Shown here in pieces: positions 5,511-38,651 of a stretch of 64,000 bases of DNA. The translations under genes and the position numbers were made by a program. The notes beneath the pieces were generated by a model. The model saw only the letters and a program-made list of their open reading frames with translations, had not been told where the DNA came from and ran no database searches. Position 1 is the stretch's first letter. Each line of letters starts with the position of its first letter. The DNA is from Pseudomonadota bacterium (GTDB lineage Bacteria; Bdellovibrionota; UBA1018; CAIMNF01), in assembly GCA_027491115.1 (NCBI GenBank), contig JAIXWV010000041.1:7274-71273 (forward strand), given 5' to 3'.

Positions 5511-6389
5511 TTATTCGCGGATGTCAAGTGCACCTGACCGCCCGCTCCACAAAGCGACCCAGAAACCGCCTAAACCCGCTCCAGTCAGCTTTACAGCCAG
5601 CGCGCCCTGCTTCAATAGTTCATGCTTTTGACCAATCAAATCGGGGGTCAGCAATCCCCAGGTCTCAAAACAGTTCTGTGCGTCTTGCATCGCGCGGGCG
5701 ATCCGATCCTCTCCTCGGGACGAATCCTTTTGGAACTCAAACAGCCCCTCTTTGGCAAGGCGGGTCGCTTGATCCATTTTTTGATCGAAGCGATCCGCCA
5801 GATGCGGATGAATCTGACGCCAATGCTTCACCTTCTCGACACAGTCCAAGGTCTGACCCCTCAGTCCGGAATCATAAAGCTCAAAACGAGGTAGACGGTC
5901 GAGTCCAACTAATGGTCGGGCTCCTTCGTCCATAGAAAACTCTATCGGACGGCCGTGGGCGATGGCGTGCACATCCATGCCACTGCTCTTCCCATGAAAC
6001 ACATCTTCGAGATGGGTCGAGAGTGGAATCCAGGAAGATTCATCCGTTCCGGTTCTCCAGATCACCAAGCGAGCGATCGCTGTACAGAGAGCTGCTGAGG
6101 ATCCGAGACCGGCGCCGATCGGGATGTGACTCTGTATGTCAACCTCGCCTGAATCGAAGAAGCGAGAATCTTGACCAAGCCACTCGAGCGCTCGACCAAT
6201 CAGACTCCGAACCACCGACTGGAACGGATTCGCCGTGATCGAGAAATCCTTCTTCTTGCGATAGACCAACTTCAAAGAAAACCTGGGATGAGGAAAAGCA
6301 ATGGCCTGCTTACCCCGAAGAACCGCATGCTCTCCGGTCAATACCCACTTGGCTGGTACCTCGATGGTAAAATCAGAAATCCGAGTCAT
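5511..6389 (-). CDS. mvk: Mevalonate kinase (GHMP kinase)
   Basis: N-terminal VPAKWVLTGEHAVLRG and the GHMP ATP motif PIGAGLGSSAA. Overlaps the MVD stop. Confidence 0.75.
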   Translation of the reverse strand: MTRISDFTIEVPAKWVLTGEHAVLRGKQAIAFPHPRFSLKLVYRKKKDFSITANPFQSVVRSLIGRALEWLGQDSRFFDSGEVDIQSHIPIGAGLGSSAALCTAIARLVIWRTGTDESSWIPLSTHLEDVFHGKSSGMDVHAIAHGRPIEFSMDEGARPLVGLDRLPRFELYDSGLRGQTLDCVEKVKHWRQIHPHLADRFDQKMDQATRLAKEGLFEFQKDSSRGEDRIARAMQDAQNCFETWGLLTPDLIGQKHELLKQGALAVKLTGAGLGGFWVALWSGRSGALDIRE

Positions 6390-7401
6390 CGAACCTGGCT
6401 CCTTTCCCGCTCACATCCCTGATTGTCTTCAAACCAGGATGGAGTCTAGAAAAATACTGTTCCCACTGTGGTGCCTCTATCGATGGAACAAACAGATGGG
6501 CATTGGCTCCAGCATCGAAAGTGAGGACAGCATGATCGCTGGGCAATTCGGCATTGCGGTTCCGAATCCGATCGATCCAAGCCTCGCTCTCCGAGTTCCA
6601 ATAACGGAATCCGGGTACGCTCGAATGAAACAAATCATGCATGTCGATCGCCTCATCCAGCACAAGCGTAGAGAGCGCGAATCCATGCGGACCCTTCAGG
6701 AGACGACGGAGTTCGGACAATCTGGTTTTCACCCGTTCCTCACGACCACTGAAGAGAGGCGAGGTCCGGACACGTTCGTGGGCCTCGCTCGATGAAACCG
6801 CTTTTTCTTCCGTCTCGAGCAACAAGATAAAATCCGTGTATTCACCTTCCGGTCTCCACTCAGTGATCCCGGTCTCAGGATCCCACTCGACAAAAGGACC
6901 ACCGAACGAGCGGCAGGAACTTCCGGAACCCTTTGCCGACACGGCGGCAAGTGACTTCCGGAGCGCAGGATCTTTCTCGAAACACTCACGGAATCGACTG
7001 AGCTCCCGACCACACAGCACCCCGGCCCAAGCCAAGGTCAGTGCCGCGAATCCGGAAGCACTGGTGGCGATGCCGGTTCCAGCGGGAACCGTGTTCCGCG
7101 TGAGAATCTCATAAACACCGGGACGGGCGTTCACTTCGAACCCGAAAGGCTCGAGGGCAGAACGGAATGATCCGACATCGGACAGAAATGCCTTGGCCTT
7201 GGCAAGACCCGTGGCAGGCGGAACATAACCCTGGTCGGAAAACCGGAATTCCAACCGGTCCGCATCACCAACCTGTGCGATGCGGGTGTGGGTCCCGGAG
7301 CGGGAAAGGGTCATCGACAGGGAAGAATTTGAGGGCTTCCCGGCGTTCTTACCCATGTACTTGATCCAAGCGATATTCACCGGAGCAAAAACGCTCACCA
7401 T
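6373..7401 (-). CDS. mvaD: Diphosphomevalonate decarboxylase
   Basis: N-terminal APVNIAWIKYMGK...SLSMTL matches the MVD signature. ATG at 7401 lies just after the PMK stop (the track GTG is at 7407). Confidence 0.85.
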   Translation of the reverse strand: MVSVFAPVNIAWIKYMGKNAGKPSNSSLSMTLSRSGTHTRIAQVGDADRLEFRFSDQGYVPPATGLAKAKAFLSDVGSFRSALEPFGFEVNARPGVYEILTRNTVPAGTGIATSASGFAALTLAWAGVLCGRELSRFRECFEKDPALRKSLAAVSAKGSGSSCRSFGGPFVEWDPETGITEWRPEGEYTDFILLLETEEKAVSSSEAHERVRTSPLFSGREERVKTRLSELRRLLKGPHGFALSTLVLDEAIDMHDLFHSSVPGFRYWNSESEAWIDRIRNRNAELPSDHAVLTFDAGANAHLFVPSIEAPQWEQYFSRLHPGLKTIRDVSGKGARFDDSDF

Positions 7402-8261: not shown

Positions 8262-9630
8262 ACTCCATCGGTAACTGCTTGAACACTTCGTCGCAATACC
8301 CGTTGATAATGAGCTTCACGGCTTCTTCGGCCTCGATGCCCCGGGACTGAAGATAGAAGAGCTGATCCTCGCTCACTTTGGATGCGGTCGCCTCGTGCTC
8401 CACAATGGCGGTCGGATTCCTCACCTCGATGTAGGGGATCGTGTTTGCTGTGCACTTCGCACCGATCAACAGGGAATCACACTGGGTGTGGTTCCTCGCA
8501 CCCTCAGCACTCGGCAGAACGACCACCCCGCCCCTGTAGGTGTTCCGACCCTCTCCGGTCGAAATCCCCTTTGAGAGGATCCGACTCTTGGTGTTCTTCC
8601 CGATGTGGATCATCTTGGTGCCCGTATCGGCCTGCATCTTCTCGTTGGTGATGGCGACCGAATAGAACTCACCCGTTGAACCCTCGCCCTCAAGAACGCA
8701 AGAAGGATACTTCCAGGTTACTGAAGATCCGACCTCAACCTGCGTCCAGGAGATCTTCGAGTTCCGACCCTTACACAAACCCCGCTTGGTCACAAAATTG
8801 TAGATTCCGCCCTTGCCCTCGGCATCACCCGAGTACCAGTTCTGGACCGTGGTGTATTTGATCACGGCTCCCTCGAGGGCCACGAGCTCCACAGTCGCAG
8901 CATGAAGCTGGTTCTCGTCCCGCATGGGTGCCGTACAACCTTCCATGTAGCTCACTTCCGAGCCTTCTTCTGCGACGATGAGGGTACGTTCGAATTGGCC
9001 GGTTCCTTGAGCGTTGATCCTGAAGTAAGTCGAAAGATCGAGCGGACACTTCACACCCTTAGGAATGAAAACAAACGAGCCGTCACTGAACACAGCGGCA
9101 TTGAGAGCGGCATAGTAATTGTCCGTGGCAGGAACCACAGAACCCAGGTACTTCCGCACCAGTTCCGGATGCTCTTTCAAAGCCTCTGAAATGGAGCAAA
9201 AAATGATCCCGTGCTTCTTCAGTTCCTCGCGTTGGGTGGTGACCACCGACACCGAATCGAACACTGCATCGACCGCGACTCCGGCCAACATCTTCTGCTC
9301 GTGAAGGGGAATGCCGAGCTTTTCGTAGGTCTCGAGTAGCTTCGGATCGACCTCGTCAAGGCTGTTCAGTTTCTTCTTCTGTTTGGGGGCTGAATAGTAG
9401 CTGATCGACTGGAAATCGATTTCTGGATAGGTCACGTCCGCCCACTTCGGCTCCTTCATTTTCTGCCAAATGCGGAATGCCTTGAGCCGGTACTCGAGCA
9501 TGAACTCGGGTTCTTCTTTCTTGGCCGAAATGAAGCGTACGGTATCCTCGCTCAGACCCGGAGGGAGGCGGTCCTCCTCGATGTCGGTCACGAATCCGTA
9601 TTTGGAATAATCCTTGTTCTGAAAATCCAT
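8206..9630 (-). CDS. sufB: Fe-S cluster assembly protein SufB
   Basis: Length 474 aa. The conserved SufB family sequence is recognised throughout. Confidence 0.95.
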
Positions 9631-9634
9631 AATT

Positions 9635-9940
9635 TCACCAGATCCCCAAGCGGTCTTTCACTTCGTCAGAAGCCATGGTCTTCGGATCCCACTTCGGCTC
9701 GAACACCAACTTCACTTCCGCTTCCACCATCCCCGGATACTCGAGGAGGCGGTTCTTCACATTCGCCACAAAGGTGTCAGCCACGGGACAGTGCGGGCTG
9801 GTGAGGGTCATCACCACATCCGCACCGGTCTTCTCGGGCCGGAAATTCGCTTCATAGATCAGACCGAGATCGACGATGGACAGGAACATCTCCGGGTCTT
9901 GAACCGGATGCAACCATTCCAGGAGTACGGGGTCACGCAT
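9635..9940 (-). CDS. sufT: DUF59/MIP18-family Fe-S assembly protein (SufT-like)
   Basis: [17 protein letters not shown]...SPHCP...[11 protein letters not shown] is the DUF59 pattern. Start inferred at the internal ATG (9940) overlapping the sufU stop. Confidence 0.7.
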
Positions 9941-10373
9941 GGTGGGTCTCCAATCCTTTTTTGAGTGTGGTCCAAGGAAGCAAAGCGCACTTGATCCGGA
10001 CCGGGAACCGTTTGATGCCGTAAAGAGCCACAATATCTTCGGAAGAGTCGTCTGCTGGAAGGACATCCGGCCGATCCTCACCCTGCATCTTGGCCCGAAA
10101 ACCTTCGATCAATCCTGAAACTTTGGACAGCGGCTGCCCCTGAACCATCTCAGTCATGATACTGGCCGAGGCCATACAAATCGAGCACCCCTCGCCCTCG
10201 AAGGTGCAGCTCTCGAGTTGTCCGTCGCGGAATTTCAAACCGAGGGTGACCTTGTCACCACACAGCGGATTGAACCCATTCTCACGAACTTGTGAGTCCG
10301 ACGCTAACCCCCAGTTTCGGGGCGATTCATGATGGTCCGCCAAAACCTCTCCGAAGACGTCACGGTAGTTCAA
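9933..10373 (-). CDS. sufU: SufU/IscU-like sulfur acceptor
   Basis: Motifs NPLCGD, CSICMASAS, and C-terminal KCALLPW. Confidence 0.8.
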   Translation of the reverse strand: MNYRDVFGEVLADHHESPRNWGLASDSQVRENGFNPLCGDKVTLGLKFRDGQLESCTFEGEGCSICMASASIMTEMVQGQPLSKVSGLIEGFRAKMQGEDRPDVLPADDSSEDIVALYGIKRFPVRIKCALLPWTTLKKGLETHHA

Positions 10374-11608
10374 GCGTTCTTCCTCCTGAAGAATTGAGGG
10401 GCGTTCATCAAGGCTTCGATGAGCTGATCGGCTTCCTCGAGAGTGTTGTAGAAACTGAAGCTCGCACGGCAGGTCGCAGGCAAGCCGAGACGGAGCATGA
10501 GCGGATGGGCACAGTGGTGACCGGCTCGAACCGAAATCCCCCGCATGTCAAGGAAGGTCGCGAGATCGTGAGCATGGACACCGTCGATCGCCACACTGAA
10601 AATCGGCGCGCGATGGTGCGGATCCTTGGGCCCGAGCAACCTCAATCCCGGAATGGCCACAATGCGCTCGAGCACATATGCAGTGATCCGATCCTCATAT
10701 TCCTGGATCCGGGTCCGCCCCTGGGTCTCGATGTAATCGATCGCTGCACCGAGCCCGATCACGCCTGCGATATCGGGGGTGCCGGCTTCGAACTTATGGG
10801 GAAGCTCGTTCCATTCGGAATCTAAATCCCCCACGTGAGTGATCATGTTCCCGCCCACCTGGTACGGGGGCATGCGGGACAGTACCGATTCTCGACCCCA
10901 AAGGACCCCGACCCCGGTCGGTCCACAGAGTTTGTGAGCCGAGAACGCGAGGAAATCGATCGGACCGAGACGCGAGAGTTCGACCTCACCGTGAGCGATT
11001 CCTTGAGCGGCGTCGACCACGATTGTCGTCCCGACCATTTTGAATCGTGAGGCGAGCGAGGCCACGGGATTGGTCACCCCGGTGACATTGCTGAGCAGGG
11101 AAACGGCTAGGATCTTCGGTTTCAATGCGAGAACCCGATCCACTTCCTTGGGATCGAGTCGGAGATCCGAAGTCAATTCAATGATCTCGAAACGGGCGCC
11201 TTTGCGCTTGGCGAGCTGCTGCCAAGGGACGAAATTCGCATGGTGCTCCATCCGGGTCACTGCGATCACATCGGCCGCACCGACATTGCTCTCACCGAAG
11301 GAAGAGGCAATGAGGTTGATCGCCTCAGTGGTCCCTTTGGTGAACACGATCTCTCGCTCGGAAGCGGCACCCAGAAAGCGGACCACCTTGCTCCGGACCG
11401 ATTCGAACGCATCCGTGGCTTCCTGGGAGAGCTTGTAGACCCCTCGGTGAACATTGGCGTTGGTTTCGAGGTAATACCGCACGATCGCATCCACCACTTT
11501 TTTGGGACGCTGGGAGGTCGCCGCGTTGTCGAGGTAGCACAAGGGCTTCCCTTCAACCATTCTTCCGAGAATGGGAAAATCGCGCCGGATCAGCTCGTTC
11601 ATGACCAC
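10370..11608 (-). CDS. sufS: Cysteine desulfurase SufS (class II aminotransferase V)
   Basis: Family similarity across 412 aa. Sits inside the suf operon. Confidence 0.9.
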   Translation of the reverse strand: MVMNELIRRDFPILGRMVEGKPLCYLDNAATSQRPKKVVDAIVRYYLETNANVHRGVYKLSQEATDAFESVRSKVVRFLGAASEREIVFTKGTTEAINLIASSFGESNVGAADVIAVTRMEHHANFVPWQQLAKRKGARFEIIELTSDLRLDPKEVDRVLALKPKILAVSLLSNVTGVTNPVASLASRFKMVGTTIVVDAAQGIAHGEVELSRLGPIDFLAFSAHKLCGPTGVGVLWGRESVLSRMPPYQVGGNMITHVGDLDSEWNELPHKFEAGTPDIAGVIGLGAAIDYIETQGRTRIQEYEDRITAYVLERIVAIPGLRLLGPKDPHHRAPIFSVAIDGVHAHDLATFLDMRGISVRAGHHCAHPLMLRLGLPATCRASFSFYNTLEEADQLIEALMNAPQFFRRKNA

Positions 11609-30562: not shown

Positions 30563-30639
30563 GCGGGAGTAGCTCAGTTGGCTAGAGCGCCACGTTGCCA
30601 ACGTGGAGGTCGAGGGTTCGAGCCCCTTTTCCCGCTCCA
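30563..30639 (+). tRNA. tRNA-Gly (anticodon GCC)
   Basis: Cloverleaf folded by hand: acceptor GCGGGAG/TTCCCGC, D-arm GCTC..GAGC, anticodon stem CCACG/CGTGG with loop TTGCCAA, T-arm GAGGG TTCGAGC CCCTT, then CCA. Confidence 0.9.
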
Positions 30640-30647
30640 TTTTTCTC

Positions 30648-31259
30648 ATGAACTTCACACCAGACTTCAAGGATCAGTTTTATAGGCTCTTGCAAGCCCG
30701 TCGTTCGGTGAGGAAGTTCAAACCTGAAATGCCTCCCCGGGAGATCCTGGAGCGGGTTCTTCAAGCTGCAATCGAAGCACCTTCCGGAAAGAATCGTCAG
30801 AACTGGAGGTTCTTTGTGTTGTCCGGTGAAAAGCGGGACGCATACCTGAGCCTTTCCCAAAAATCCTGGCTCGGTATCAAAGACATTCTCGAGAAACGAC
30901 TGAAGCCCTCTCTGTATCAATTCACGGAGCGGTTCTTCTACACCCTGGGCGATGCTCCGGTGGTCATCTTGTGCTATTCGGCGAATGACAGTGACGAAAA
31001 ACACCTCACCAGTGTCGGCTCGGTGTATATGGCCGTTGAGAACCTGAACCTGGCCGCAGTAGCAGAAGGTCTTGGATGCTGCACCATGGGCGCACCCTTG
31101 GAAATCAAAGCCGAGGTGGACTCATTCCTCGGCATTGAAACACTCCGTGAACCCGGAGTGGAAAACATGGAACTGCTCTGTGCGGTGGTCCTCGGTTATC
31201 CGGACCACACGCCACCTCGGGCTCCTCGCCAGCTCGAAAATCGAGTCCGCTGGCTTTAA
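30648..31259 (+). CDS. Nitroreductase family protein
   Basis: LLQARRSVRKFKPEMPP...APSGKNRQNWRFFVL. The ATG lies right after the tRNA; the track ORF begins inside the tRNA. Confidence 0.8.
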   Translation: MNFTPDFKDQFYRLLQARRSVRKFKPEMPPREILERVLQAAIEAPSGKNRQNWRFFVLSGEKRDAYLSLSQKSWLGIKDILEKRLKPSLYQFTERFFYTLGDAPVVILCYSANDSDEKHLTSVGSVYMAVENLNLAAVAEGLGCCTMGAPLEIKAEVDSFLGIETLREPGVENMELLCAVVLGYPDHTPPRAPRQLENRVRWL

Positions 31260-31275
31260 TTCATCCTCACCACTC

Positions 31276-31560
31276 TCAGTGGTGAGCTTCTTCTTTCTTC
31301 TCTTCTTTGTGCTCTTCGGATTTTCCGTGCTTGGTTTCGCAATTCTTACAGCCCTTCTTAGTCTTGGCCTTCTTTTTCATCTTGCAGTTCTCACCACTGC
31401 AGTCCTTATCGCAACCGCCATCGCAGTCGTCTTTCTTCTGCTCGGCAGCCGGAGCTTCCTGTTTGGCAGGAGCAGCGGTATCTTCCGCGCGAACAACCGG
31501 TGAAAGAAACAACGAGAATGCAACCACTGGAACCAATGCGAATTTCTGAATTGAGGTCAT
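31276..31560 (-). CDS. Small secreted Cys/His/Lys-rich protein (putative periplasmic metal-binding)
   Basis: Perfect RBS TAAGGAG before the ATG at 31560. Signal peptide (FALVPVVAFSLFLSPVVRA). Mature part CDGGCDKDCSGENCK...GCKNCETKHG...EEHKEEKKEEAHH. Confidence 0.55.
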   Translation of the reverse strand: MTSIQKFALVPVVAFSLFLSPVVRAEDTAAPAKQEAPAAEQKKDDCDGGCDKDCSGENCKMKKKAKTKKGCKNCETKHGKSEEHKEEKKEEAHH

Positions 31561-31607
31561 GAGTTTCTCCTTACTCCCCATTCTAAACATTCCCTGTGAA
31601 CTCAGGT

Positions 31608-31679: not shown

Positions 31680-32894
31680 GTGCTTAAATTACTTGCCCTT
31701 GGAATATTAATGACGACACAGGCCTTCGGATCGACCCCCACTCCAGAAGCTTTTTGTCGTGATTACTTAGCCCTGCGTCAAGAACAGTCCAATTCCCGCC
31801 CAAGACCAGATCAAACACTCACCCTCCTGTTCCGGCCTCGCAGCCTGATTCAAGCCAGACAATGGGATCGCCCCGTGCCAGCTCGAAAAGTGAGGGATTC
31901 GTCTGCAAGAACCAAGAAGGTGATTTACGTCCTTCTGAGCTCACCGGAATCGGATGAGTCCGTGATCCGCTCGGTCCGCGCCACCCAAGAGCGCATCCGC
32001 CGTCTCCCTCTGCTCAGGGATCTTGCACGGGCTCCATCCTTGGAAGGGTGTATCGAAGCGGTCCAGCAGGATTCCTTCGGTTATGCGCGGATGAGCGAGT
32101 ACCTCGATCAATATAAGACTGCCCGTCCCCACCTGGATGCCAAACGGCAAAGTGACCTGAGGGCCCTGGTTGAAAAGAAATTGATCGCCTTCGAACACAA
32201 GGGCTGGGAAGTCCGCTTTCCGAAAACCTACTCTGATTTCATGATCGAGCTCGAACGTGATCCCGGAATCCGTGAGGCCATGATCATCGCCCACGCCGAC
32301 CCTGAGGGAAAACTTTACGATTCGACTGGAACGGCGATTCCAGCAGGGGTCCTGTTGAACCTGCCCGAGAGTCTCCAAAAGCTGATTCTATTCAGTTGCC
32401 ATTCCCGTGCGGTTCTCGATCGCTATGAAGCGAAGCGGGCATCCTCATCCATGGATATTCACTACCCCGAACTCGAGGATCAGCATGAGAACCTTTATCG
32501 GACTTCCATCCCGGTCGTGGCACTTCGAGGAATGTTGAATGCAGCAGACGCAGGCCTTTCCGGCGGTTCCGCCCCCGATCGCTCATGCCGGATCGATGTC
32601 GTCCTCCCGGAAGCCTCCGGTCGGTACGAGATTCTGCTTCAGAACCGATTGATCGGGATCCTCGATCGAACAGCCGGGAAATCGATCTCTTTCGACTGTT
32701 CCCTTCTCGGAACCGGAAAAACCATTTTCAAGCTCCATCACGCTGAAGGCGAAGCAAGAACACCCCCAAGGGTGTCCGAGATGCGCCTCACAACTCCCGG
32801 ATCAGGAATGGTCCTGCTCCGGGTGAAGGAGTTTCTTTCGTCAGACGGCATCAGCCACATCCAAACCATCGGTACCACAGGAGGTCACCCATGA
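31680..32894 (+). CDS. Secreted hypothetical protein; possible clan-CD-like cysteine peptidase (His/Cys dyad on hydrophobic strands)
   Basis: Signal peptide (LALGILMTTQAFG). Motifs AMIIAHADPEG and KLILFSCHS are arranged like caspase/gingipain His and Cys strands. This is weak and inferred. Confidence 0.45.
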   Translation: MLKLLALGILMTTQAFGSTPTPEAFCRDYLALRQEQSNSRPRPDQTLTLLFRPRSLIQARQWDRPVPARKVRDSSARTKKVIYVLLSSPESDESVIRSVRATQERIRRLPLLRDLARAPSLEGCIEAVQQDSFGYARMSEYLDQYKTARPHLDAKRQSDLRALVEKKLIAFEHKGWEVRFPKTYSDFMIELERDPGIREAMIIAHADPEGKLYDSTGTAIPAGVLLNLPESLQKLILFSCHSRAVLDRYEAKRASSSMDIHYPELEDQHENLYRTSIPVVALRGMLNAADAGLSGGSAPDRSCRIDVVLPEASGRYEILLQNRLIGILDRTAGKSISFDCSLLGTGKTIFKLHHAEGEARTPPRVSEMRLTTPGSGMVLLRVKEFLSSDGISHIQTIGTTGGHP

Positions 32895-33397
32895 AATCCA
32901 TGAAACAGCGGATCAGCGCCCTGGTCCTTTCCACCACTCTCACAGTCGGAGCCATCAGTGCCCCCACCCAGCGGGCCGAAGCAGGGGTGATCGTCGCCGC
33001 AGCTTCTTCCCTGTATGTGACCATCCCGGCACTTGCGATCGCAGGAATGCTCGGAGGATTCGGTACAGCGGTCGGATCCATCTATTATGCCATTGATCAT
33101 CGCGACAAAGCTTGGTGGGCCTACGCCTTCTTCATGCTCGACGCCGAACTTCAGAACGGAAACCTGCAACAAACCATCGAGCAGCGTTACCCGGGCATCG
33201 ACTCGACCGTTGCAGCCGAGATCGCACGGATCGTTACCGAGAAAGCCAAGGAAACCGCTTTCGATGACAAAGGGCTGAAAGAAATCATTCTCAGCGAAAC
33301 CGACCTGGCACCGGTGACGGACTTGCTCGCCGAGACCGATCCTGCTCTCGGACAAAAGCTCAAAAACGAACTCACCCACTCGACGCTGGTGAAGTGA
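32891..33397 (+). CDS. Secreted or membrane small protein, paralog A (signal peptide plus Gly-zipper hydrophobic segment plus about 90-aa domain)
   Basis: Clear paralog of the next gene: ...QRYPGIDSTVAAE...KGLKEIILSETDLAPV...LTHSTL versus ...QRYPGLDSAVALE...QGLKEVVLTEAEIAPI...LTRSSL. Confidence 0.55.
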   Translation: MKSMKQRISALVLSTTLTVGAISAPTQRAEAGVIVAAASSLYVTIPALAIAGMLGGFGTAVGSIYYAIDHRDKAWWAYAFFMLDAELQNGNLQQTIEQRYPGIDSTVAAEIARIVTEKAKETAFDDKGLKEIILSETDLAPVTDLLAETDPALGQKLKNELTHSTLVK

Positions 33398-33422
33398 ACC
33401 CGAACCCGAAACGGAGAAAACC

Positions 33423-33899
33423 ATGAAATACGTGAAAAATTTAAAAGCCAAACTCGCTCTTCTCGCCTGCCTCACCGCCGCAACGGTGGCCCCCACCTCG
33501 GATGCCAAAGCCGGTATCATCATCGGGGTCGCCATCCCGGGGATCGGATCTGCCTTGGTGGGCCTGACCATCACCTCAGCGGGATTCTTCTGGGGCATCC
33601 AAAGTGATGACCTGAACTACTGGGCTGCGGCTCTCTTTGTTTTGGATCAGGATGCGACTCCTGAAGGTCTCCGGTCCGCTCTAGAACAACGCTATCCGGG
33701 CCTAGACTCCGCAGTGGCTCTCGAGCTCGGTCAATTGATTTCGAATAAGGCCTCCCAACTCGAGAGAAACGGCCAAGGACTCAAGGAAGTGGTACTGACC
33801 GAAGCTGAGATCGCGCCCATCCTGCAGATCCTTGAGGAAACCGGCTCCGATCTTGGGGAACGCTTGAGCCAGGATTTGACCCGCAGCAGCTTGAAATGA
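33423..33899 (+). CDS. Secreted or membrane small protein, paralog B
   Basis: Tandem duplicate of 32891..33397. Signal peptide LALLACLTAATVA, Gly-zipper GVAIPGIGSALVGLTITSAG. Confidence 0.55.
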   Translation: MKYVKNLKAKLALLACLTAATVAPTSDAKAGIIIGVAIPGIGSALVGLTITSAGFFWGIQSDDLNYWAAALFVLDQDATPEGLRSALEQRYPGLDSAVALELGQLISNKASQLERNGQGLKEVVLTEAEIAPILQILEETGSDLGERLSQDLTRSSLK

Positions 33900-33981: not shown

Positions 33982-34452
33982 ATGCTCAAAATGCTCACCG
34001 GCTTGACCCTGTGGCTCCTCCTGTTCGCTCTCTATCCACTCTCCACACGCGCTCAGGTTCACGGGAGCGGAGGAGGACCGGATCGACCCAGCAATCAGGA
34101 AGCGATGTGCACCGAGCTTCGCGACCGGTCTCGTGACCTGGAAAAAGATTACCTAGATTCGAGAAAAATCCGCTACGAAAACGACCAAAGTTTCTTTGAC
34201 GAAATAAAACGTCTCGCAGCAAAAAGTATATTCAAAGCGATCAGTAAACCATCCTGGGCGCAAACTTCCTGTGGGAGTGCGCCGGTTCCCGTTCACACCC
34301 CGGATCAAATCAAGCTCCTTCATCGGATTGAGCAACTTTGGGTACAAGGGGTCGAATCACCACAATACTGCCTAGGACGTTTCAAGTCCCGTGCCAGAAA
34401 CATTGATGCTCTAAAATGTGTGATCCAATCGCTGTCTCATGAGTCAAAATGA
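33982..34452 (+). CDS. Small secreted hypothetical protein
   Basis: Signal peptide LTLWLLLFALYPLSTRA, 4 Cys. Confidence 0.45.
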   Translation: MLKMLTGLTLWLLLFALYPLSTRAQVHGSGGGPDRPSNQEAMCTELRDRSRDLEKDYLDSRKIRYENDQSFFDEIKRLAAKSIFKAISKPSWAQTSCGSAPVPVHTPDQIKLLHRIEQLWVQGVESPQYCLGRFKSRARNIDALKCVIQSLSHESK

Positions 34453-35638
34453 GGAACGCCACGTCTATTTTCTGGAGACTTTCAAGCTCCTGAGATCGGA
34501 CAAACGCAAATTCCTGTATCGCCTCGAGCATCACACCTTTTCTTTGGCAGAAGGCCGATTGCTCCGTGCGTATCTCGAGTTCCACAGGAACTCGAAGGCG
34601 GGAGCCTTGAAAGAGCTCCGGGTCAGTCCTTTTCATGAAGCATTCTATGAAGGGGTCAGGCTCTACCTCATCGGTCTCGTTTACAACCAGCACAGCCATT
34701 TCAGGTACGCAGTCGAGAATCTCGAACGCTCCGTCCAGACCTTCCAAACCGTGCCTCACTATGGGTTCGTCCTGAATCCGCTCTACTTGCTGATCCTCGC
34801 CCTGGGTAACAGAAGAGAAGTGGCCCGAATGGGCCAACTTTTACTGGAACTCGAATCCATCCCGGTGACCACCGCTCTCGAGAAACTCCAAGTCCTCCAT
34901 TGTCGGATCCTGTATGCCTTGCTCTCAGGTGATACTCAAAACTGCCTTGAGCTTGTTGAACATGCATTCCGTCACAAAAAGCAGGATTTGAAGAGCTTTG
35001 AACCGCATCTACTGATCATCCGAATCTCAGCTTTGATCCAAGAAATGCGTTACGATGACGCGATCTCTCTTCTGGATCGATACAAGAAAACGGCTTCAAA
35101 TGCGATCGTCCGTGCAAACTATGCCTATATCAAGACACTGCTCACCCACCTGCACCAGGGGGCTCCCTTGTACATCTACGCATCGAAGTTCAAGGATTTC
35201 CCGGAGCTACACTGGCAACTGGAAACGGTGAAACGTCTCTCCATCGGGGATTTGGATGGGGCCAGGAAATTTTGGAACCAACTCCGGAAGCACAATACGG
35301 GGCTTTACGGTGTGGACTTCGAGTACAAGGGTGACCCCTCGCTGTTCTCGCAATGCCTAGATCGATACCGGTCTCACACCACTGGAGAGGACTGGGATGA
35401 ATCTGAACTCGCCGGAATCAAATCCAAACGGGATCGACTGCATTTCTTGCTGACCCGGAGTTCAGGTCCGATCCTTGCTGACAGGCTGGTGGACCTGATT
35501 TGGGGAGAAGAAGCCGATGAGCGTACCCTGGCCCGACTCAGGAAACTGATTTCAAACTACTGCAAGGAGCTGGGTGTGAAGGTGGTTTCTCGCCACAACA
35601 GTTACCGTTTGGACCTGCAGACCGGTGAGACCAGGTAA
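34439..35638 (+). CDS. Transcriptional regulator with C-terminal OmpR/PhoB-type winged-helix domain and N-terminal helical (TPR-like) domain
   Basis: C-terminal LHFLLTRSSGPILADRLVDLIWGEEADERTLARLRKLISNYCKELGVKVVSRHNSYRLD fits the trans_reg_C pattern. There is no receiver domain. Confidence 0.55.
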   Translation: MSQNEERHVYFLETFKLLRSDKRKFLYRLEHHTFSLAEGRLLRAYLEFHRNSKAGALKELRVSPFHEAFYEGVRLYLIGLVYNQHSHFRYAVENLERSVQTFQTVPHYGFVLNPLYLLILALGNRREVARMGQLLLELESIPVTTALEKLQVLHCRILYALLSGDTQNCLELVEHAFRHKKQDLKSFEPHLLIIRISALIQEMRYDDAISLLDRYKKTASNAIVRANYAYIKTLLTHLHQGAPLYIYASKFKDFPELHWQLETVKRLSIGDLDGARKFWNQLRKHNTGLYGVDFEYKGDPSLFSQCLDRYRSHTTGEDWDESELAGIKSKRDRLHFLLTRSSGPILADRLVDLIWGEEADERTLARLRKLISNYCKELGVKVVSRHNSYRLDLQTGETR

Positions 35639-36447
35639 TCAGCGAATTCCAAACGATTGAGGGCCTCACAAGCTCCGGGATCGACGGGACAGGTCAATCC
35701 GAGGTGGTGTAACTCCAGATCGACCCGTTTGCGGATCCCGACATGCATTTCGGAACAATTCAAGGCCTCGTCCCAAGCGGGGTTCACGTACTCCGCCCAC
35801 GTGAAGCTCGCATCACGTTCCCATTCCCCCTCCTCGTTGCACCTAAAATACGGACGGGATCCTTCCACTAGGCGGGACCAGAAACGGTACCCTTGGTAAT
35901 CCGCCGCGATGTCTGCCCAGGACTTCACACCCGAAGTCCCAAGACCCCAAAGACCGTCCTCACCATGTTCCGTATCCAAAACCTTCTCGATCGGGGTGCC
36001 TTGACGAACCTGATCGTAGAAATCGAGACCCTGCATGAAAAAGTGCCCGATTTTGTCGGTTCCGATCACCTGGCCCGACAGCTTGAAACTCCGACCGATC
36101 CCGAACACCCTCATGATGGGTGACTCAAAAAAAGAAACCTCCCGATAGACACTGTTTCGGACTCCCACCGGAGTCCTCTCAATCGAATCCGTGAACTCGA
36201 GCCATAGCTCGAGGATCCCGGTCGGATCCGGCCGGATCCACCGAAGGATCTCTTGCCGAAGGACGGCAAAGCTGCAGAATCCGGGGCTCTCGAGACGGGA
36301 GTCGCGAGCCGCACGGTCCAGGATGCTGTTCACCTTCTGGTCCAGGACCGGAATCGAGTCCCGCACCAATGCAGAACGCCCCGTGAAATTATCCACTTCG
36401 TAGGCCAATACCGGCTGAAGGAGCAATAATACGAAGCTCAAGACCAT
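35602..36447 (-). CDS. Secreted hypothetical protein
   Basis: Signal peptide MVLSFVLLLLQPVLA. No recognised domain. Confidence 0.5.
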   Translation of the reverse strand: MVLSFVLLLLQPVLAYEVDNFTGRSALVRDSIPVLDQKVNSILDRAARDSRLESPGFCSFAVLRQEILRWIRPDPTGILELWLEFTDSIERTPVGVRNSVYREVSFFESPIMRVFGIGRSFKLSGQVIGTDKIGHFFMQGLDFYDQVRQGTPIEKVLDTEHGEDGLWGLGTSGVKSWADIAADYQGYRFWSRLVEGSRPYFRCNEEGEWERDASFTWAEYVNPAWDEALNCSEMHVGIRKRVDLELHHLGLTCPVDPGACEALNRLEFADYLVSPVCRSKR

Positions 36448-36503
36448 TTAGTGTTCATAGCACCTGGAAGGAGGTCTTTACAAATCCACTCTGAACAGCT
36501 ATT

Positions 36504-38651
36504 ATGCGCCGCATGAAACTCTCCACCCTTCACTCCATCCCCTCGTTTTTGTTCCTTTTGGCGCCCCAAGTGTTTGCACAGAGCGTGAGTTACTCGGGCT
36601 ACTACAACGGCCCGCGAGTGGACGTGAACTTCATTCAATACCCACCCGCCCAGTACCAGGAGTGCCGTGAAAAATACATCAACTCCACCGCCCGGATCTA
36701 TAGTGCTTGCAGCTTCGGGGTGGATGAAGCCCGTCGGATGGCGGAGCGTTTCGGCGGGGGCAAGGGCCGAATCGAAGGCTACCTGAGAGGGTTCTCCTGG
36801 GGCCTTTATTCTTCAGTACAATCGAATCGCTCGAACGACGACGCGATGGCGATCGGTGCCGCCCTCAATGCCGATCTTTTGGGACGGATTGAACGGGCGA
36901 GCCTCGAGGGTGCCTCACGTGGCAAGTCCGCAGGTGAGGCGCGTGGAGCTTCGGAAGCGAGAAAGCGCTTCACATCGGCTTTGGACAGCGGCATGAGCCC
37001 CATTGCGGAGATCGGGGCCACTCCTCCTTCGGCATTCTCCTCACGCTACCAGGACCCATATAGCAGCCTGATCGGAAAGCCACAGACGCTCGAGGACATG
37101 CTGAAGCAACCGGTCGAAGACTTGAGTCAGATCCGCGTCTACGACAGCTATGACCGTGTTTTCTTGGGAGACGTCCCTCGCTTCAATCTGTTCGATTACT
37201 ACTTCAGTGACGGAACCTACCAGTTTGAGATGGCCCGCTGGGTAGAGCCCCAGGCCGCCATCCGTCAGTGGCTGAACCGTCCGATCGACACCAAGCCTCG
37301 ATACGAAGCTCTCGAAACCGATACCATTCAAGTGGCTGTGCAAAACCCCAAACCGGGTGAGCCCGCAACCCGGACCGAAACCGTTGAATTGAAGGAGATC
37401 TTCCGCAAGTCCTTCGTCAATGCCTACGGCTGGTATGTGAACTACTACTTCTCACAGAACTTCTATACCCAGCTCGATCTGGGACAAAGAGTGGGCGAAT
37501 CCATCGGGAAGCAGGTGGGAATGCGATACGCTCGGTCATCAGGGGAAGTGAAAGGCTTCAACCAGAAGTTCCAACGTGATGAACGTGCCGCCTACGATTC
37601 TGTGTTCGAAAACGCCTATCGAAACGGCTTCACCGCCACGTTCAACGATTATTCCAACAACCCGAAGCCGGAGGTGGACGGGTTTGAAATCATCGGAGAA
37701 GTGGATGACGGAATCCTTCAGCCAGGCGAACGAGTCGCGGTCTCTTTCCGAATCAAGAACTACGGAAAGGTCGCCACCCAGGGCAACGCTTATCTGGAAG
37801 GGGTCCAAAACGGGGTGTCCAGCCAAGAGATCGTGATGCCTGCCCTCCGATCCACTCCGGTTCGTACCGACTTCCTGGGGTCGATCTCCAGTTCGGTTCA
37901 AAACACAGCGAATCTGAATATCGGCCTGACCCTCACCGGGAAGGGATTCGGAGCCTTCACCGTGCTCCAGAGCGCACGGGTCATGAGACAGGTCACTCCA
38001 CTCGGAATCGAAGTGAAAACCCTCGCACCGACCGGGCAGGCAATCGTGAGCTACAGCGTGAAGAATAACTCACGCCTCAATTCCTCGGCTAGCGTCCGGG
38101 TCATCCTACGCGATTCGACCGGTCGAGTAGTGGAGGAGAATCTTGGCATCATCGCAGGCAACCAAACTGCAACGGCCCAATTCCAACTCGACGGGTACTC
38201 CCCTCTCGAGCTGATTCGTGGGCCCGGCATCACGGTGCGTGGCCAGATGTTCCTCGGTGAGCTCGTGATCGGAGAACTCGGTGGCACCGTTCTGTCACAG
38301 AACCCCGTAGCCGATCTCGCCCGGGCATTTGCCGAGCAGGCCCGGGACGCCTCCCGCTCTGAACTGGTTCGCGCCCTTCAGACCGAGCTGGTCGAGCGAA
38401 TTACCGGAGAAACCGCCAACATCGAACGTCGGGGTTACGAGCGCCAGGGAGACGCCACCTACCTCCAACAAACCCTGAACGCCTACCGGGGTAAATCCCT
38501 AAATGCAGTGGCCCGTGAAGCCTACTCGTCCTTGGCTCGCGCACTGTGGCCGGCCCGAAAGGCATTCACTAACTTCATCGGAATCAAATCCTGCAACCGC
38601 AAGTTCTTCGAGTCAGCGGTTAAGGAACTGAACGCCGGTAAAAAGATTTGA
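36504..38651 (+). CDS. Large secreted hypothetical protein (715 aa)
   Basis: Signal peptide IPSFLFLLAPQVFAQS. No recognised domain. Overlaps the next gene start by 4 nt. Confidence 0.55.
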   Translation: MRRMKLSTLHSIPSFLFLLAPQVFAQSVSYSGYYNGPRVDVNFIQYPPAQYQECREKYINSTARIYSACSFGVDEARRMAERFGGGKGRIEGYLRGFSWGLYSSVQSNRSNDDAMAIGAALNADLLGRIERASLEGASRGKSAGEARGASEARKRFTSALDSGMSPIAEIGATPPSAFSSRYQDPYSSLIGKPQTLEDMLKQPVEDLSQIRVYDSYDRVFLGDVPRFNLFDYYFSDGTYQFEMARWVEPQAAIRQWLNRPIDTKPRYEALETDTIQVAVQNPKPGEPATRTETVELKEIFRKSFVNAYGWYVNYYFSQNFYTQLDLGQRVGESIGKQVGMRYARSSGEVKGFNQKFQRDERAAYDSVFENAYRNGFTATFNDYSNNPKPEVDGFEIIGEVDDGILQPGERVAVSFRIKNYGKVATQGNAYLEGVQNGVSSQEIVMPALRSTPVRTDFLGSISSSVQNTANLNIGLTLTGKGFGAFTVLQSARVMRQVTPLGIEVKTLAPTGQAIVSYSVKNNSRLNSSASVRVILRDSTGRVVEENLGIIAGNQTATAQFQLDGYSPLELIRGPGITVRGQMFLGELVIGELGGTVLSQNPVADLARAFAEQARDASRSELVRALQTELVERITGETANIERRGYERQGDATYLQQTLNAYRGKSLNAVAREAYSSLARALWPARKAFTNFIGIKSCNRKFFESAVKELNAGKKI

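Follow-up and report, generated by a model that had tools for sequence, protein, structure and literature searches.

Introduction

Peptidases of clan CD carry a His-Gly...Ala-Cys motif (PMC12445089). Characterised bacterial proteases of the CHAT and caspase-like types are cytoplasmic immune or cell-death switches. Caspase-like or CHAT proteases encoded beside pore-forming gasdermins activate them by removing an inhibitory C-terminal peptide (bioRxiv 10.1101/2021.06.07.447441). Among envelope proteins, Gly-rich segments of the SlyB/YfgH type can embed in the membrane and oligomerise (bioRxiv 10.64898/2025.12.22.696046), whilst the VacA toxin of Helicobacter pylori depends for channel formation on 32 uncharged N-terminal residues that include GXXXG motifs and an essential Pro9 (PMC4926140). 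Here we analyse a 64,000-nucleotide (nt) stretch of DNA, hereafter the window, from a Pseudomonadota bacterium (GTDB Bdellovibrionota; UBA1018; CAIMNF01; assembly GCA_027491115.1, contig JAIXWV010000041.1, positions 7,274-71,273). It contains a gene for an exported protein of 404 amino acids (aa), a caspase/CHAT-like candidate, followed by two genes for small exported proteins. We refer to the two small paralogs as A and B, to the upstream protein as the enzyme and to comparison loci by L numbers.

The 404-aa protein resembles clan CD members such as SAVED-CHAT (PDB 8tl0), TPR-CHAT/Craspase (PDB 7zoq) and gingipain RgpB in that a His lies ~35 residues before a Cys, both after hydrophobic β-strands. 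Its model, like a gingipain, has an α/β domain followed by a β-sandwich and, as in the CHAT-gasdermin and Craspase-Csx30 pairs, its gene adjoins that of a putative dedicated partner. It differs from the characterised CHAT proteases, which are cytoplasmic, in carrying a Sec signal peptide, and also in a helical insertion and in reading His-Ala and Ser-Cys in place of His-Gly and Ala-Cys; it is a predicted peptidase only. Paralogs A and B share with the glycine-zipper envelope proteins (Gly-zipper_Omp, Gly-zipper_YMGG, Rick_17kDa_Anti; SlyB, YfgH, OsmB) a small size, export and a Gly-rich segment right after the signal peptide, but have an additional conserved C-domain of ~85 aa and are linked to a caspase-like candidate enzyme. 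With VacA they share Sec export and a mature N-terminus of ~30 uncharged, Gly-rich residues with an internal Pro and GxxxG motifs. VacA is not homologous to them and is an autotransporter toxin of 140 kDa, whereas A and B are of 13-15 kDa with an 85-aa domain; a channel role could be proposed by analogy only. Lastly, the locus recalls the gasdermin operons in that a putative membrane-active protein lies beside what may be a dedicated caspase-fold protease, with the proposed logic that cleavage alters the membrane behaviour of its target. Those systems are cytoplasmic and their gasdermins palmitoylated, whereas both partners here are exported and A and B are unrelated to gasdermins in sequence and predicted fold.

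What is new here is a robust two-family module of an enzyme and small membrane-type proteins. Literature searches on CHAT together with glycine zippers, and on exported caspase-like proteins in Bdellovibrio, returned nothing relevant, and we did not find the pair described. Neither family is in Pfam, NCBIfam or PDB, and their pairing provides a testable handle on both. If our reading of the upstream protein is correct, the module would represent an extracytoplasmic caspase-fold enzyme equipped with small membrane partners of its own.

Results and Discussion

Two linked gene families

The module lies on the + strand and its parts are as follows.

31680-32894, + strand: gene of the 404-aa protein, GTG start; exported, with a predicted caspase/CHAT-like α/β domain and a C-terminal β-sandwich
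32880-32884, + strand: Shine-Dalgarno sequence GGAGG of gene A, inside the Gly-Gly codons that end the 404-aa gene
32891-33397, + strand: gene of paralog A, 168 aa, ATG start
32891-32983, + strand: predicted signal peptide of A
32984-33094, + strand: Gly/Ala-rich hydrophobic segment of A
~33128-33394, + strand: α/β C-domain of A
33423-33899, + strand: gene of paralog B, 158 aa, ATG start
33423-33512, + strand: predicted signal peptide of B
33513-33599, + strand: Gly-rich hydrophobic segment of B
~33633-33896, + strand: α/β C-domain of B

The original prediction for this region, made from the sequence of the window, had placed two adjacent paralogs of one architecture at 32891-33899. Both genes lie exactly there, and BLASTP aligns A with B at 37% identity over 143 aa (E 6e-33). 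This paralogy is far beyond chance: A and B are true, ancient tandem paralogs. The motifs on which the prediction drew are likewise all present, namely AEA/AKA, AGMLGGFGTAVGS, GVAIPGIGSALVGLTITSAG, QRYPG[IL]DS, GLKE[IV] and LT[HR]S in the paralogs, and AMIIAHADPEG and LILFSCHS in the 404-aa open reading frame (ORF). Against the orthologous genes of L005, synonymous differences (pS) are near saturation in gene A (~0.8) and reach 0.5-0.7 in gene B, with nonsynonymous differences (pN) of 0.03-0.46 depending on the region; both are genes coding on the + strand under purifying selection. A 237-aa antisense ORF (32885-33598) was considered as a gene and rejected, since the same substitution pattern fits coding on the + strand.

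A small-family gene adjoins a homolog of the 404-aa gene in 12 of 14 distinct lineages, even where identity has fallen to ~20-25% (L005, L009, L011, L021, L024, L032, L019, L025, L026/27, L028 and L031). The original prediction had proposed to look for the three genes together in other genomes, and the order enzyme, A-type, B-type does recur, in the clade of the window and in mid-distance relatives (L005, L009, L011, L021, L024 and L032) whose small proteins are 30-47% identical to those of the window. Each window paralog invariably matches best with the gene at the equivalent position, and the B-type gene always lies 3′ of the A-type; the duplication is therefore old and its order fixed. Moreover, a metagenome scan that started from the enzyme recovered seven loci, and each with room beside the gene has one or two small-family genes. 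At greater distance, the small-family member P0060 in L019 is followed by a 447-aa enzyme homolog (hhalign 98.4%, E 8.6e-15). Three further distant members (L028, L030 and L031) were selected solely by the length of their contigs; of these, L028 and L031 have adjacent, convergently oriented enzyme homologs of 805-849 aa (E 8e-32 and 2e-22), with two tandem small-family genes beside the enzyme gene in L031.

The genes around the module differ between lineages, being kdp genes, transglycosylases or housekeeping genes, and the adjacency survives changes of gene order and orientation. Both partners, moreover, carry predicted signal peptides. Because adjacency persists in 12 of 14 lineages with otherwise differing surroundings, the two families very probably form one functional module, which strongly supports the functional link between the 404-aa protein and the paralogs that had been suspected. 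Two loci do weigh against this: L030 has a small-family gene without an adjacent enzyme homolog, and L008 has both A and B with no enzyme within 8 kb. Such loci would be expected if A and B were ordinary small inner-membrane proteins that happen to neighbour the 404-aa gene and have no functional link to it. We consider such coincidence very unlikely, given that the adjacency has outlasted both rearrangement and deep divergence amongst unrelated surroundings.

Translation of A is coupled to that of the enzyme in the Bdellovibrionota clade: the enzyme gene contains the Shine-Dalgarno sequence of A, and its stop codon overlaps the ATG of A (ATGA; window 32880-32894). GGAGG lies 6 nt 5′ of the ATG of gene A, and GGAG 6 nt 5′ of that of gene B. 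The GGAGGT and the overlapping ATGA are kept in every locus in which the enzyme gene precedes A. As the GGAGGT of A also encodes the invariant Gly-Gly near the C-terminus of the 404-aa protein, part of the protein-level conservation of the enzyme tail is a dual-coding constraint. We had considered the C-terminal TIGTxGGxP tail as a sorting or sortase-like signal and rejected this, because its Gly-Gly codons serve as the ribosome-binding site of A, and loci with another gene order have a different tail.

The upstream 404-aa protein

Three features of the enzyme are needed here.

32292-32294, + strand: codon of His205, candidate catalytic His, at the end of predicted strand 197-206 (MIIAHAD)
32397-32399, + strand: codon of Cys240, candidate catalytic Cys, just past predicted strand 234-238 (LILFSC)
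32577-32870, + strand: C-terminal β-sandwich, ~residues 300-397 (model strands 303-397), with invariant Cys303 and Cys340

The protein has a predicted signal peptide (residues 1-17, cleavage between AFG and S). All homologs likewise open with a predicted signal peptide, and the GTG start is therefore favoured over the internal ATG of some annotations. A confident AlphaFold2 model (predicted local distance difference test, pLDDT, 79.7; predicted template-modelling score, pTM, 0.79) gives an α/β domain, with a long helical insertion at ~residues 110-173, followed by the β-sandwich. The latter is absent from the L027 homolog; its Foldseek matches to PLAT and C2 lipid-binding folds are weak and mixed, and serve as hints only.

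His205, Ser239-Cys240 and a Gly-x-Leu-Tyr-Asp turn are kept in 14 homologs down to ~20% identity. Four further Cys are invariant in the same set, and the two disulfides they might form would leave Cys240 unpaired. Whilst Ser-Cys is invariant in all homologs, the next residue, His241, is replaceable (SCE in L025, SCF in L027). The pair fits clan CD because His205 lies ~35 residues before Cys240 and each follows a hydrophobic strand, at its C-terminal end as in that clan. The window protein reads His-Ala at the first of these positions; in L028 and L031, the distant homologs have the canonical His-Gly (THGEENG).

Other searches weigh against this assignment. Foldseek of the 404-aa model against PDB gave no match at E <= 1e-3, the weak match to gingipain RgpB (E 0.03, probability 0.2) lying beyond that threshold. 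There is no match to the CHAT (PF12770) or caspase (PF00656) profile, and Pfam as a whole gave none at E <= 1 for the window protein, none at E <= 10 for 10 homologs and none for the large homologs. Profiles built from the full-length alignment and from the catalytic core found nothing relevant in PDB. The clan-CD-like protease that had been read from the two strand motifs thus keeps its invariant His-then-Cys at strand ends and lacks profile matches and a Foldseek match at E <= 1e-3. On the sequence pattern and the model, we regard the 404-aa protein as a likely clan-CD-like peptidase. Were it not a protease, there would still be a robust new conserved gene pair, of ordinary interest.

The enzyme homologs in L028 (6557-9106, - strand) and L031 (1232-3649, - strand) are twice as long as that of the window. 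They have a ~400-aa N-terminal extension with Gly-rich hydrophobic stretches of its own and a Pro/Thr/Ala-rich linker.

A family of small exported proteins

A and B are built to one four-part plan: a basic n-region with a 15-17-residue h-region, a P-x-x-x-A-x-A/G site (the slash marks predicted cleavage), a Gly/Ala/Ser-rich stretch, and a linker with the C-domain. The predicted signal peptides, which can be read directly from the sequence, are MKSMKQR-ISALVLSTTLTVGAISA-PTQRAEA/G in A and MKYVKNLKAK-LALLACLTAATVA-PTSDAKA/G in B. Both have the basic n-region, the hydrophobic h-region and the small residues at -3 and -1 expected of substrates of Sec and signal peptidase I, and both end in a near-invariant AxA/G[IV]I[IV]. 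The uncharged stretch that follows is of 37 aa in A (GVIVAAASSLYVTIPALAIAGMLGGFGTAVGSIYYAI) and 29 aa in B (GIIIGVAIPGIGSALVGLTITSAGFFWGI), with 46% and 41% Gly/Ala/Ser, respectively, and an invariant internal Ile-Pro. After it come a short polar linker, a hydrophobic strand with a Leu-Asp end and an acidic α/β domain of ~85 aa. The second aromatic hydrophobic patch of the original prediction is present and is largely the first β-strand (residues 81-83) of the soluble domain in an AlphaFold model of a paralog. We considered the conserved Asp residues D84 and D104 as a caspase-type cleavage site and rejected both: D84 lies in the first strand, D104 is helix N-cap-like, and both vary between D, E, N and G across the family.

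Amongst 5.8 billion proteins, a word-indexed search found 7 relatives of A, and a profile of A and B extended this to 26 clusters, none of which has a Pfam domain or an informative name. An exhaustive hidden Markov model (HMM) search of 1.84 billion cluster representatives gave 144 matches at E <= 1e-3, nearly all of them 135-185 aa long and aligned over their full length. Conservation across the entire family is highest at (K)AxA/G followed by three Ile/Val/Leu: the -1 Ala is the sole invariant column in 84 wider-family members, and 126 of 146 members have an AxAG-type site (AEAG 35, ANAG 19, AQAG 9, others). Scans of A, B and all neighbours with Pfam, NCBIfam and PADLOC gave no usable family for the paralogs; no family was matched by the 84 wider members in Pfam and NCBIfam, and PDB sequence searches with paralog profiles gave no relevant match. 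Homology to a known periplasmic family, which had been named as one of two findings that would overturn the prediction, was thus not found in Pfam, NCBIfam or PDB. A and B belong, as far as their sequences tell, to an unannotated and undescribed family of small exported proteins.

A scan of species-representative genomes found close relatives in freshwater metagenome-assembled genomes (MAGs) labelled Bdellovibrio sp., Bdellovibrionales, Bacteriovoracaceae and 'Proteobacteria bacterium'; no relatives were found on viral contigs or plasmids, the wider alignment of the small proteins being too divergent for use on the former. One match of the exhaustive HMM search, P0087, is a 291-aa protein of ~55-aa repeats (VKYGATEIEIDDPNLSINDIREVMAETYPELSNATHTQNGNIIEFKVQAGTKG), four stretches of which match the YP-x-L part of the profile in HMMER (E 5e-7). 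These repeats may be distantly related to the C-domain or may share the motif by coincidence.

Constraint within the small proteins is very uneven. Amongst A orthologs the stretch from AxAG to Leu-Asp is 95-100% identical whilst the C-domain is 50-87% identical; in the most divergent, the values are 95% for this stretch, 50% for the C-domain and 44% for the signal peptide. In gene A, pN against L005 is 0.032 in the hydrophobic region versus 0.31-0.32 in the signal peptide and C-domain, with pS saturated. Gene B follows the same trend (0.12 versus 0.37-0.46 elsewhere). Purifying selection on the hydrophobic segment of A is thus about ten times as strong as on the remainder of the protein, and the low pN of this segment marks it as the functional core rather than a generic anchor.

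This pattern bears on a reading in which the enzyme is a secreted hydrolase, for instance for prey or envelope, and A and B protect the producer: anchored in its envelope, their C-domains would bind and silence the enzyme until release. Bdellovibrio has self-protection partners for secreted predatory enzymes, the Bd3459/Bd3460 pair being an example, and the Bdellovibrionota origin of the locus is in keeping with this. So too are the export of both partners, their side-by-side and translationally coupled genes, and the tandem duplication of small genes, which is typical of immunity loci. However, the strongest constraint falls on the hydrophobic segment and not on the soluble domain that would bind the enzyme. 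Moreover, A and B are old, stable orthologs in a fixed order and not variable arrays. Neighbourhoods are housekeeping or unrelated, with no secretion-system or polymorphic-toxin context in any locus examined, and there is no relevant PADLOC or toxin-family match. We think a protease with a membrane-tethered inhibitor unlikely, and the effector-immunity arrangement that had been raised for this locus fits poorly with stable orthologs, a constrained hydrophobic segment and the lack of nearby secretion-system genes.

Glycine-zipper character

The description of the hydrophobic segments as a clear GxxxG zipper was overstated. Shuffles of each segment give an expectation of 0.75 GxxxG in A and 1.29 in B, against 2 observed in each (p 0.16 and 0.38), which is not above what composition predicts. 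The canonical [GAS]xxxGxxx[GAS] pattern occurs once in A and not in B. Small residues are not clustered on one helical face, the small-residue helical moment being below the shuffle mean. The Pfam glycine-zipper families PF13488, PF13441, PF13436 and PF05433 have no match to A or B at E <= 1, nor to any of the 84 small-family members at E <= 0.01. The lipobox Cys at +1 is also absent, with AEA/G in A, AKA/G in B and Gly at +1 in most family members.

These results bear on a further alternative, argued from analogy, in which the Gly-rich N-termini of A and B would insert in a target membrane and form a pore in the manner of VacA. Removal of the C-domain by the caspase-like enzyme would be the trigger, an extracytoplasmic analogue of gasdermin activation by CHAT or caspase-like proteases encoded alongside (bioRxiv 10.1101/2021.06.07.447441). 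A mature N-terminus that is an uncharged Gly-rich segment of 29-37 aa with an invariant internal Pro, much like the channel-forming segment of VacA (PMC4926140), would suit such a role, as would the extreme conservation of that segment and the predatory lineage. On the other hand, the GxxxG pattern is not above chance, no export route past the periplasm is evident, the hosts of the wider family need not be predators, no cleavage site is identifiable in A or B, and gasdermin homology was found in neither fold nor sequence. A secreted membrane-attacking agent is therefore quite improbable. A broader version, also drawn by analogy, seems a little less so and is still improbable: the exported caspase-fold enzyme would cleave or ligate A and B, and the freed Gly-Ile/Val peptides would build an A/B pore for prey or for the cell's own envelope during the predatory cycle. 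In a variant, the enzyme would be a transpeptidase, to which mature A and B would offer their invariant N-terminal Gly-Ile/Val as acceptor nucleophile. A Gly-Ile/Val N-terminus is the motif preferred by the asparaginyl-endopeptidase ligases of clan CD.

Membrane topology and a possible mechanism

Kyte-Doolittle maxima over 19 residues are 2.07 (A) and 2.21 (B) for the hydrophobic segments, against 1.42 and 1.32 for the signal-peptide cores, and a classical predictor would, on hydrophobicity alone, call the segments membrane-spanning. The flank after the hydrophobic region is acidic, with 0.96 K+R versus 3.5 D+E per 15 aa (n=84) and at most one K/R in 68 of 84 members; the n-region has 2.3 K+R per 10 residues. 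From the acidic, Lys/Arg-poor flank, the more than threefold variation in the length of the stretch and the export of the partner, we propose, with only moderate confidence, that the C-domain faces the periplasm and that the Gly-rich segment is embedded in the membrane and does not simply cross it.

Starting from the paralogy, the export signals on both partners, the pattern of constraint, the conserved neighbourhood and the invariant His/Cys pair, we infer the following mechanism. Signal peptidase I would free the hydrophobic N-terminal Gly-Ile/Val peptide of A and B. This peptide would embed in a membrane of the cell envelope and drive hetero-oligomerisation of A and B, or homo-oligomerisation where there is a single copy, with the C-domain facing the periplasm. 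The neighbouring protein would be a clan-CD (caspase/CHAT-like) cysteine peptidase, possibly a transpeptidase, that docks on the membrane via its β-sandwich and has A and B as its specific targets, whose membrane state it would switch by cleavage or some other processing. In the Bdellovibrionota clade, an adjacent secreted Cys protein and a TPR/winged-helix regulator may control the module. We put forward this combination of a clan-CD-like enzyme with dedicated membrane substrates or partners tentatively, as possible rather than probable.

Three considerations on the small proteins speak against it. A segment directly after the signal peptide would normally form, by default, a stop-transfer hairpin, leaving the C-domain in the cytoplasm and beyond the reach of a periplasmic enzyme. 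The hydrophobic stretch, measured from the cleavage site to the Leu-Asp strand, ranges from ~15 to 58 residues across the wider family, so one topology may not suit all members. AlphaFold, moreover, gives no confident structure for residues 1-79 of a paralog.

The first of these points leads to another alternative, in which the complex is structural or signalling and not proteolytic. The 404-aa protein would be a flavodoxin-like periplasmic subunit whose His/Cys pair holds a metal or cofactor or forms a redox or sensing site, and A and B would be its membrane anchor or transducer subunits, whose C-domains, if cytoplasmic, may relay a signal to the TPR/winged-helix regulator. Hydrophobicity makes the segment a plausible stop-transfer anchor with N-out/C-in topology, the family member P0160 has an Arg-rich loop past the first hydrophobic stretch that fits the cytoplasm, and the regulator gene is always found with the module in the Bdellovibrionota clade. 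Nevertheless, the order His then Cys, their positions at strand ends and the His-Gly of distant homologs fit clan CD better. The acidic, Lys/Arg-poor flank speaks against a cytoplasmic C-domain, and distant loci keep only the enzyme/small-protein pair, without the regulator and the small Cys protein. A non-proteolytic complex is, in our view, not the likely answer.

The module is specific to uncultured freshwater Bdellovibrionota and may be relevant to the way predators deal with membranes. It offers a solid lead for protease and envelope biologists, its occurrence being mostly in uncultured bacteria.

Accessory and neighbouring genes

Two genes follow B in the window.

33982-34452, + strand: gene of a 156-aa secreted Cys-containing protein; predicted mature N-terminus QVHGSGGGPD, conserved Cys
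34439-35638, + strand: gene of a 399-aa cytoplasmic TPR protein with a C-terminal OmpR/SARP-type winged-helix region; 14-nt overlap with the preceding gene

The gene of the 156-aa protein lies beside the module in the window, L005, L011, L013-15, L023, L024, L032 and, as two copies, L008; Pfam and NCBIfam scans gave it no family match. The 399-aa protein has weak TPR_14 and MalT-TPR matches, and its residues 324-384 match the DNA-binding region of AfsR (E 8.6e-4; E 0.07 in a second search). The gene of this regulator is kept with the module in all Bdellovibrionota-type loci, whilst the pair of genes is missing from the distant loci. Both are clade-specific accessory parts. In peptide-signalling cassettes of the RNPP type, the gene of a secreted pro-peptide lies beside that of a TPR regulator. 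The arrangement here is similar in that a secreted-protein gene overlaps that of a cytoplasmic TPR DNA-binding regulator, with an exported putative protease encoded alongside. It differs in having a C-terminal winged helix and not an N-terminal helix-turn-helix, and a secreted protein as long as 156 aa with a conserved Cys; no homology was detected.

In L008 (GCA_947461145, CANHJD010000011, 5637-15020), which is from a Bacteriovoracaceae MAG, A and B are flanked by two pairs of secreted-protein and regulator genes (5637-7363 and 9349-10990, - strand). A Peptidase_C25 gene (gingipain-type, also clan CD) lies ~5 kb downstream, and the gene of a Cys-rich 233-aa secreted protein is adjacent; the CHAT-like gene is missing where it would be expected. 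In one sub-lineage (L011 4931-5770, L012 807-1682, L032 7216-8052) the module is followed by a ~280-aa protein with a match to Por_Secre_tail, the C-terminal domain of type IX secretion.

A search for RNA genes or repeats at the module gave no candidate that we retained: Rfam finds only a tRNA-Gly upstream (anticodon GCC, 30563-30639, + strand, 65.3 bits), and the one repeat found is the paralogy of A and B. A nitroreductase-like ORF (30603-31259, GTG start) overlaps this tRNA, and its real start is therefore probably further downstream. Between this ORF and the module, 31276-31590 (- strand) encodes a small secreted protein of 94-104 aa with an extremely high content of Lys, Glu, Cys and His (…DDCDGGCDKDCSGENCKMKKKAKTKKGCKNCETKHGKSEEHKEEKKEEAHH). 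It is also found upstream of the module in close relatives, has a weak Asr-like match as its sole match and may bind metal. After the module (window 35602-38651) are two signal-peptide proteins without a family match, of 281 aa (- strand) and 715 aa (+ strand), which are conserved only in the closest relatives (L013-L015).

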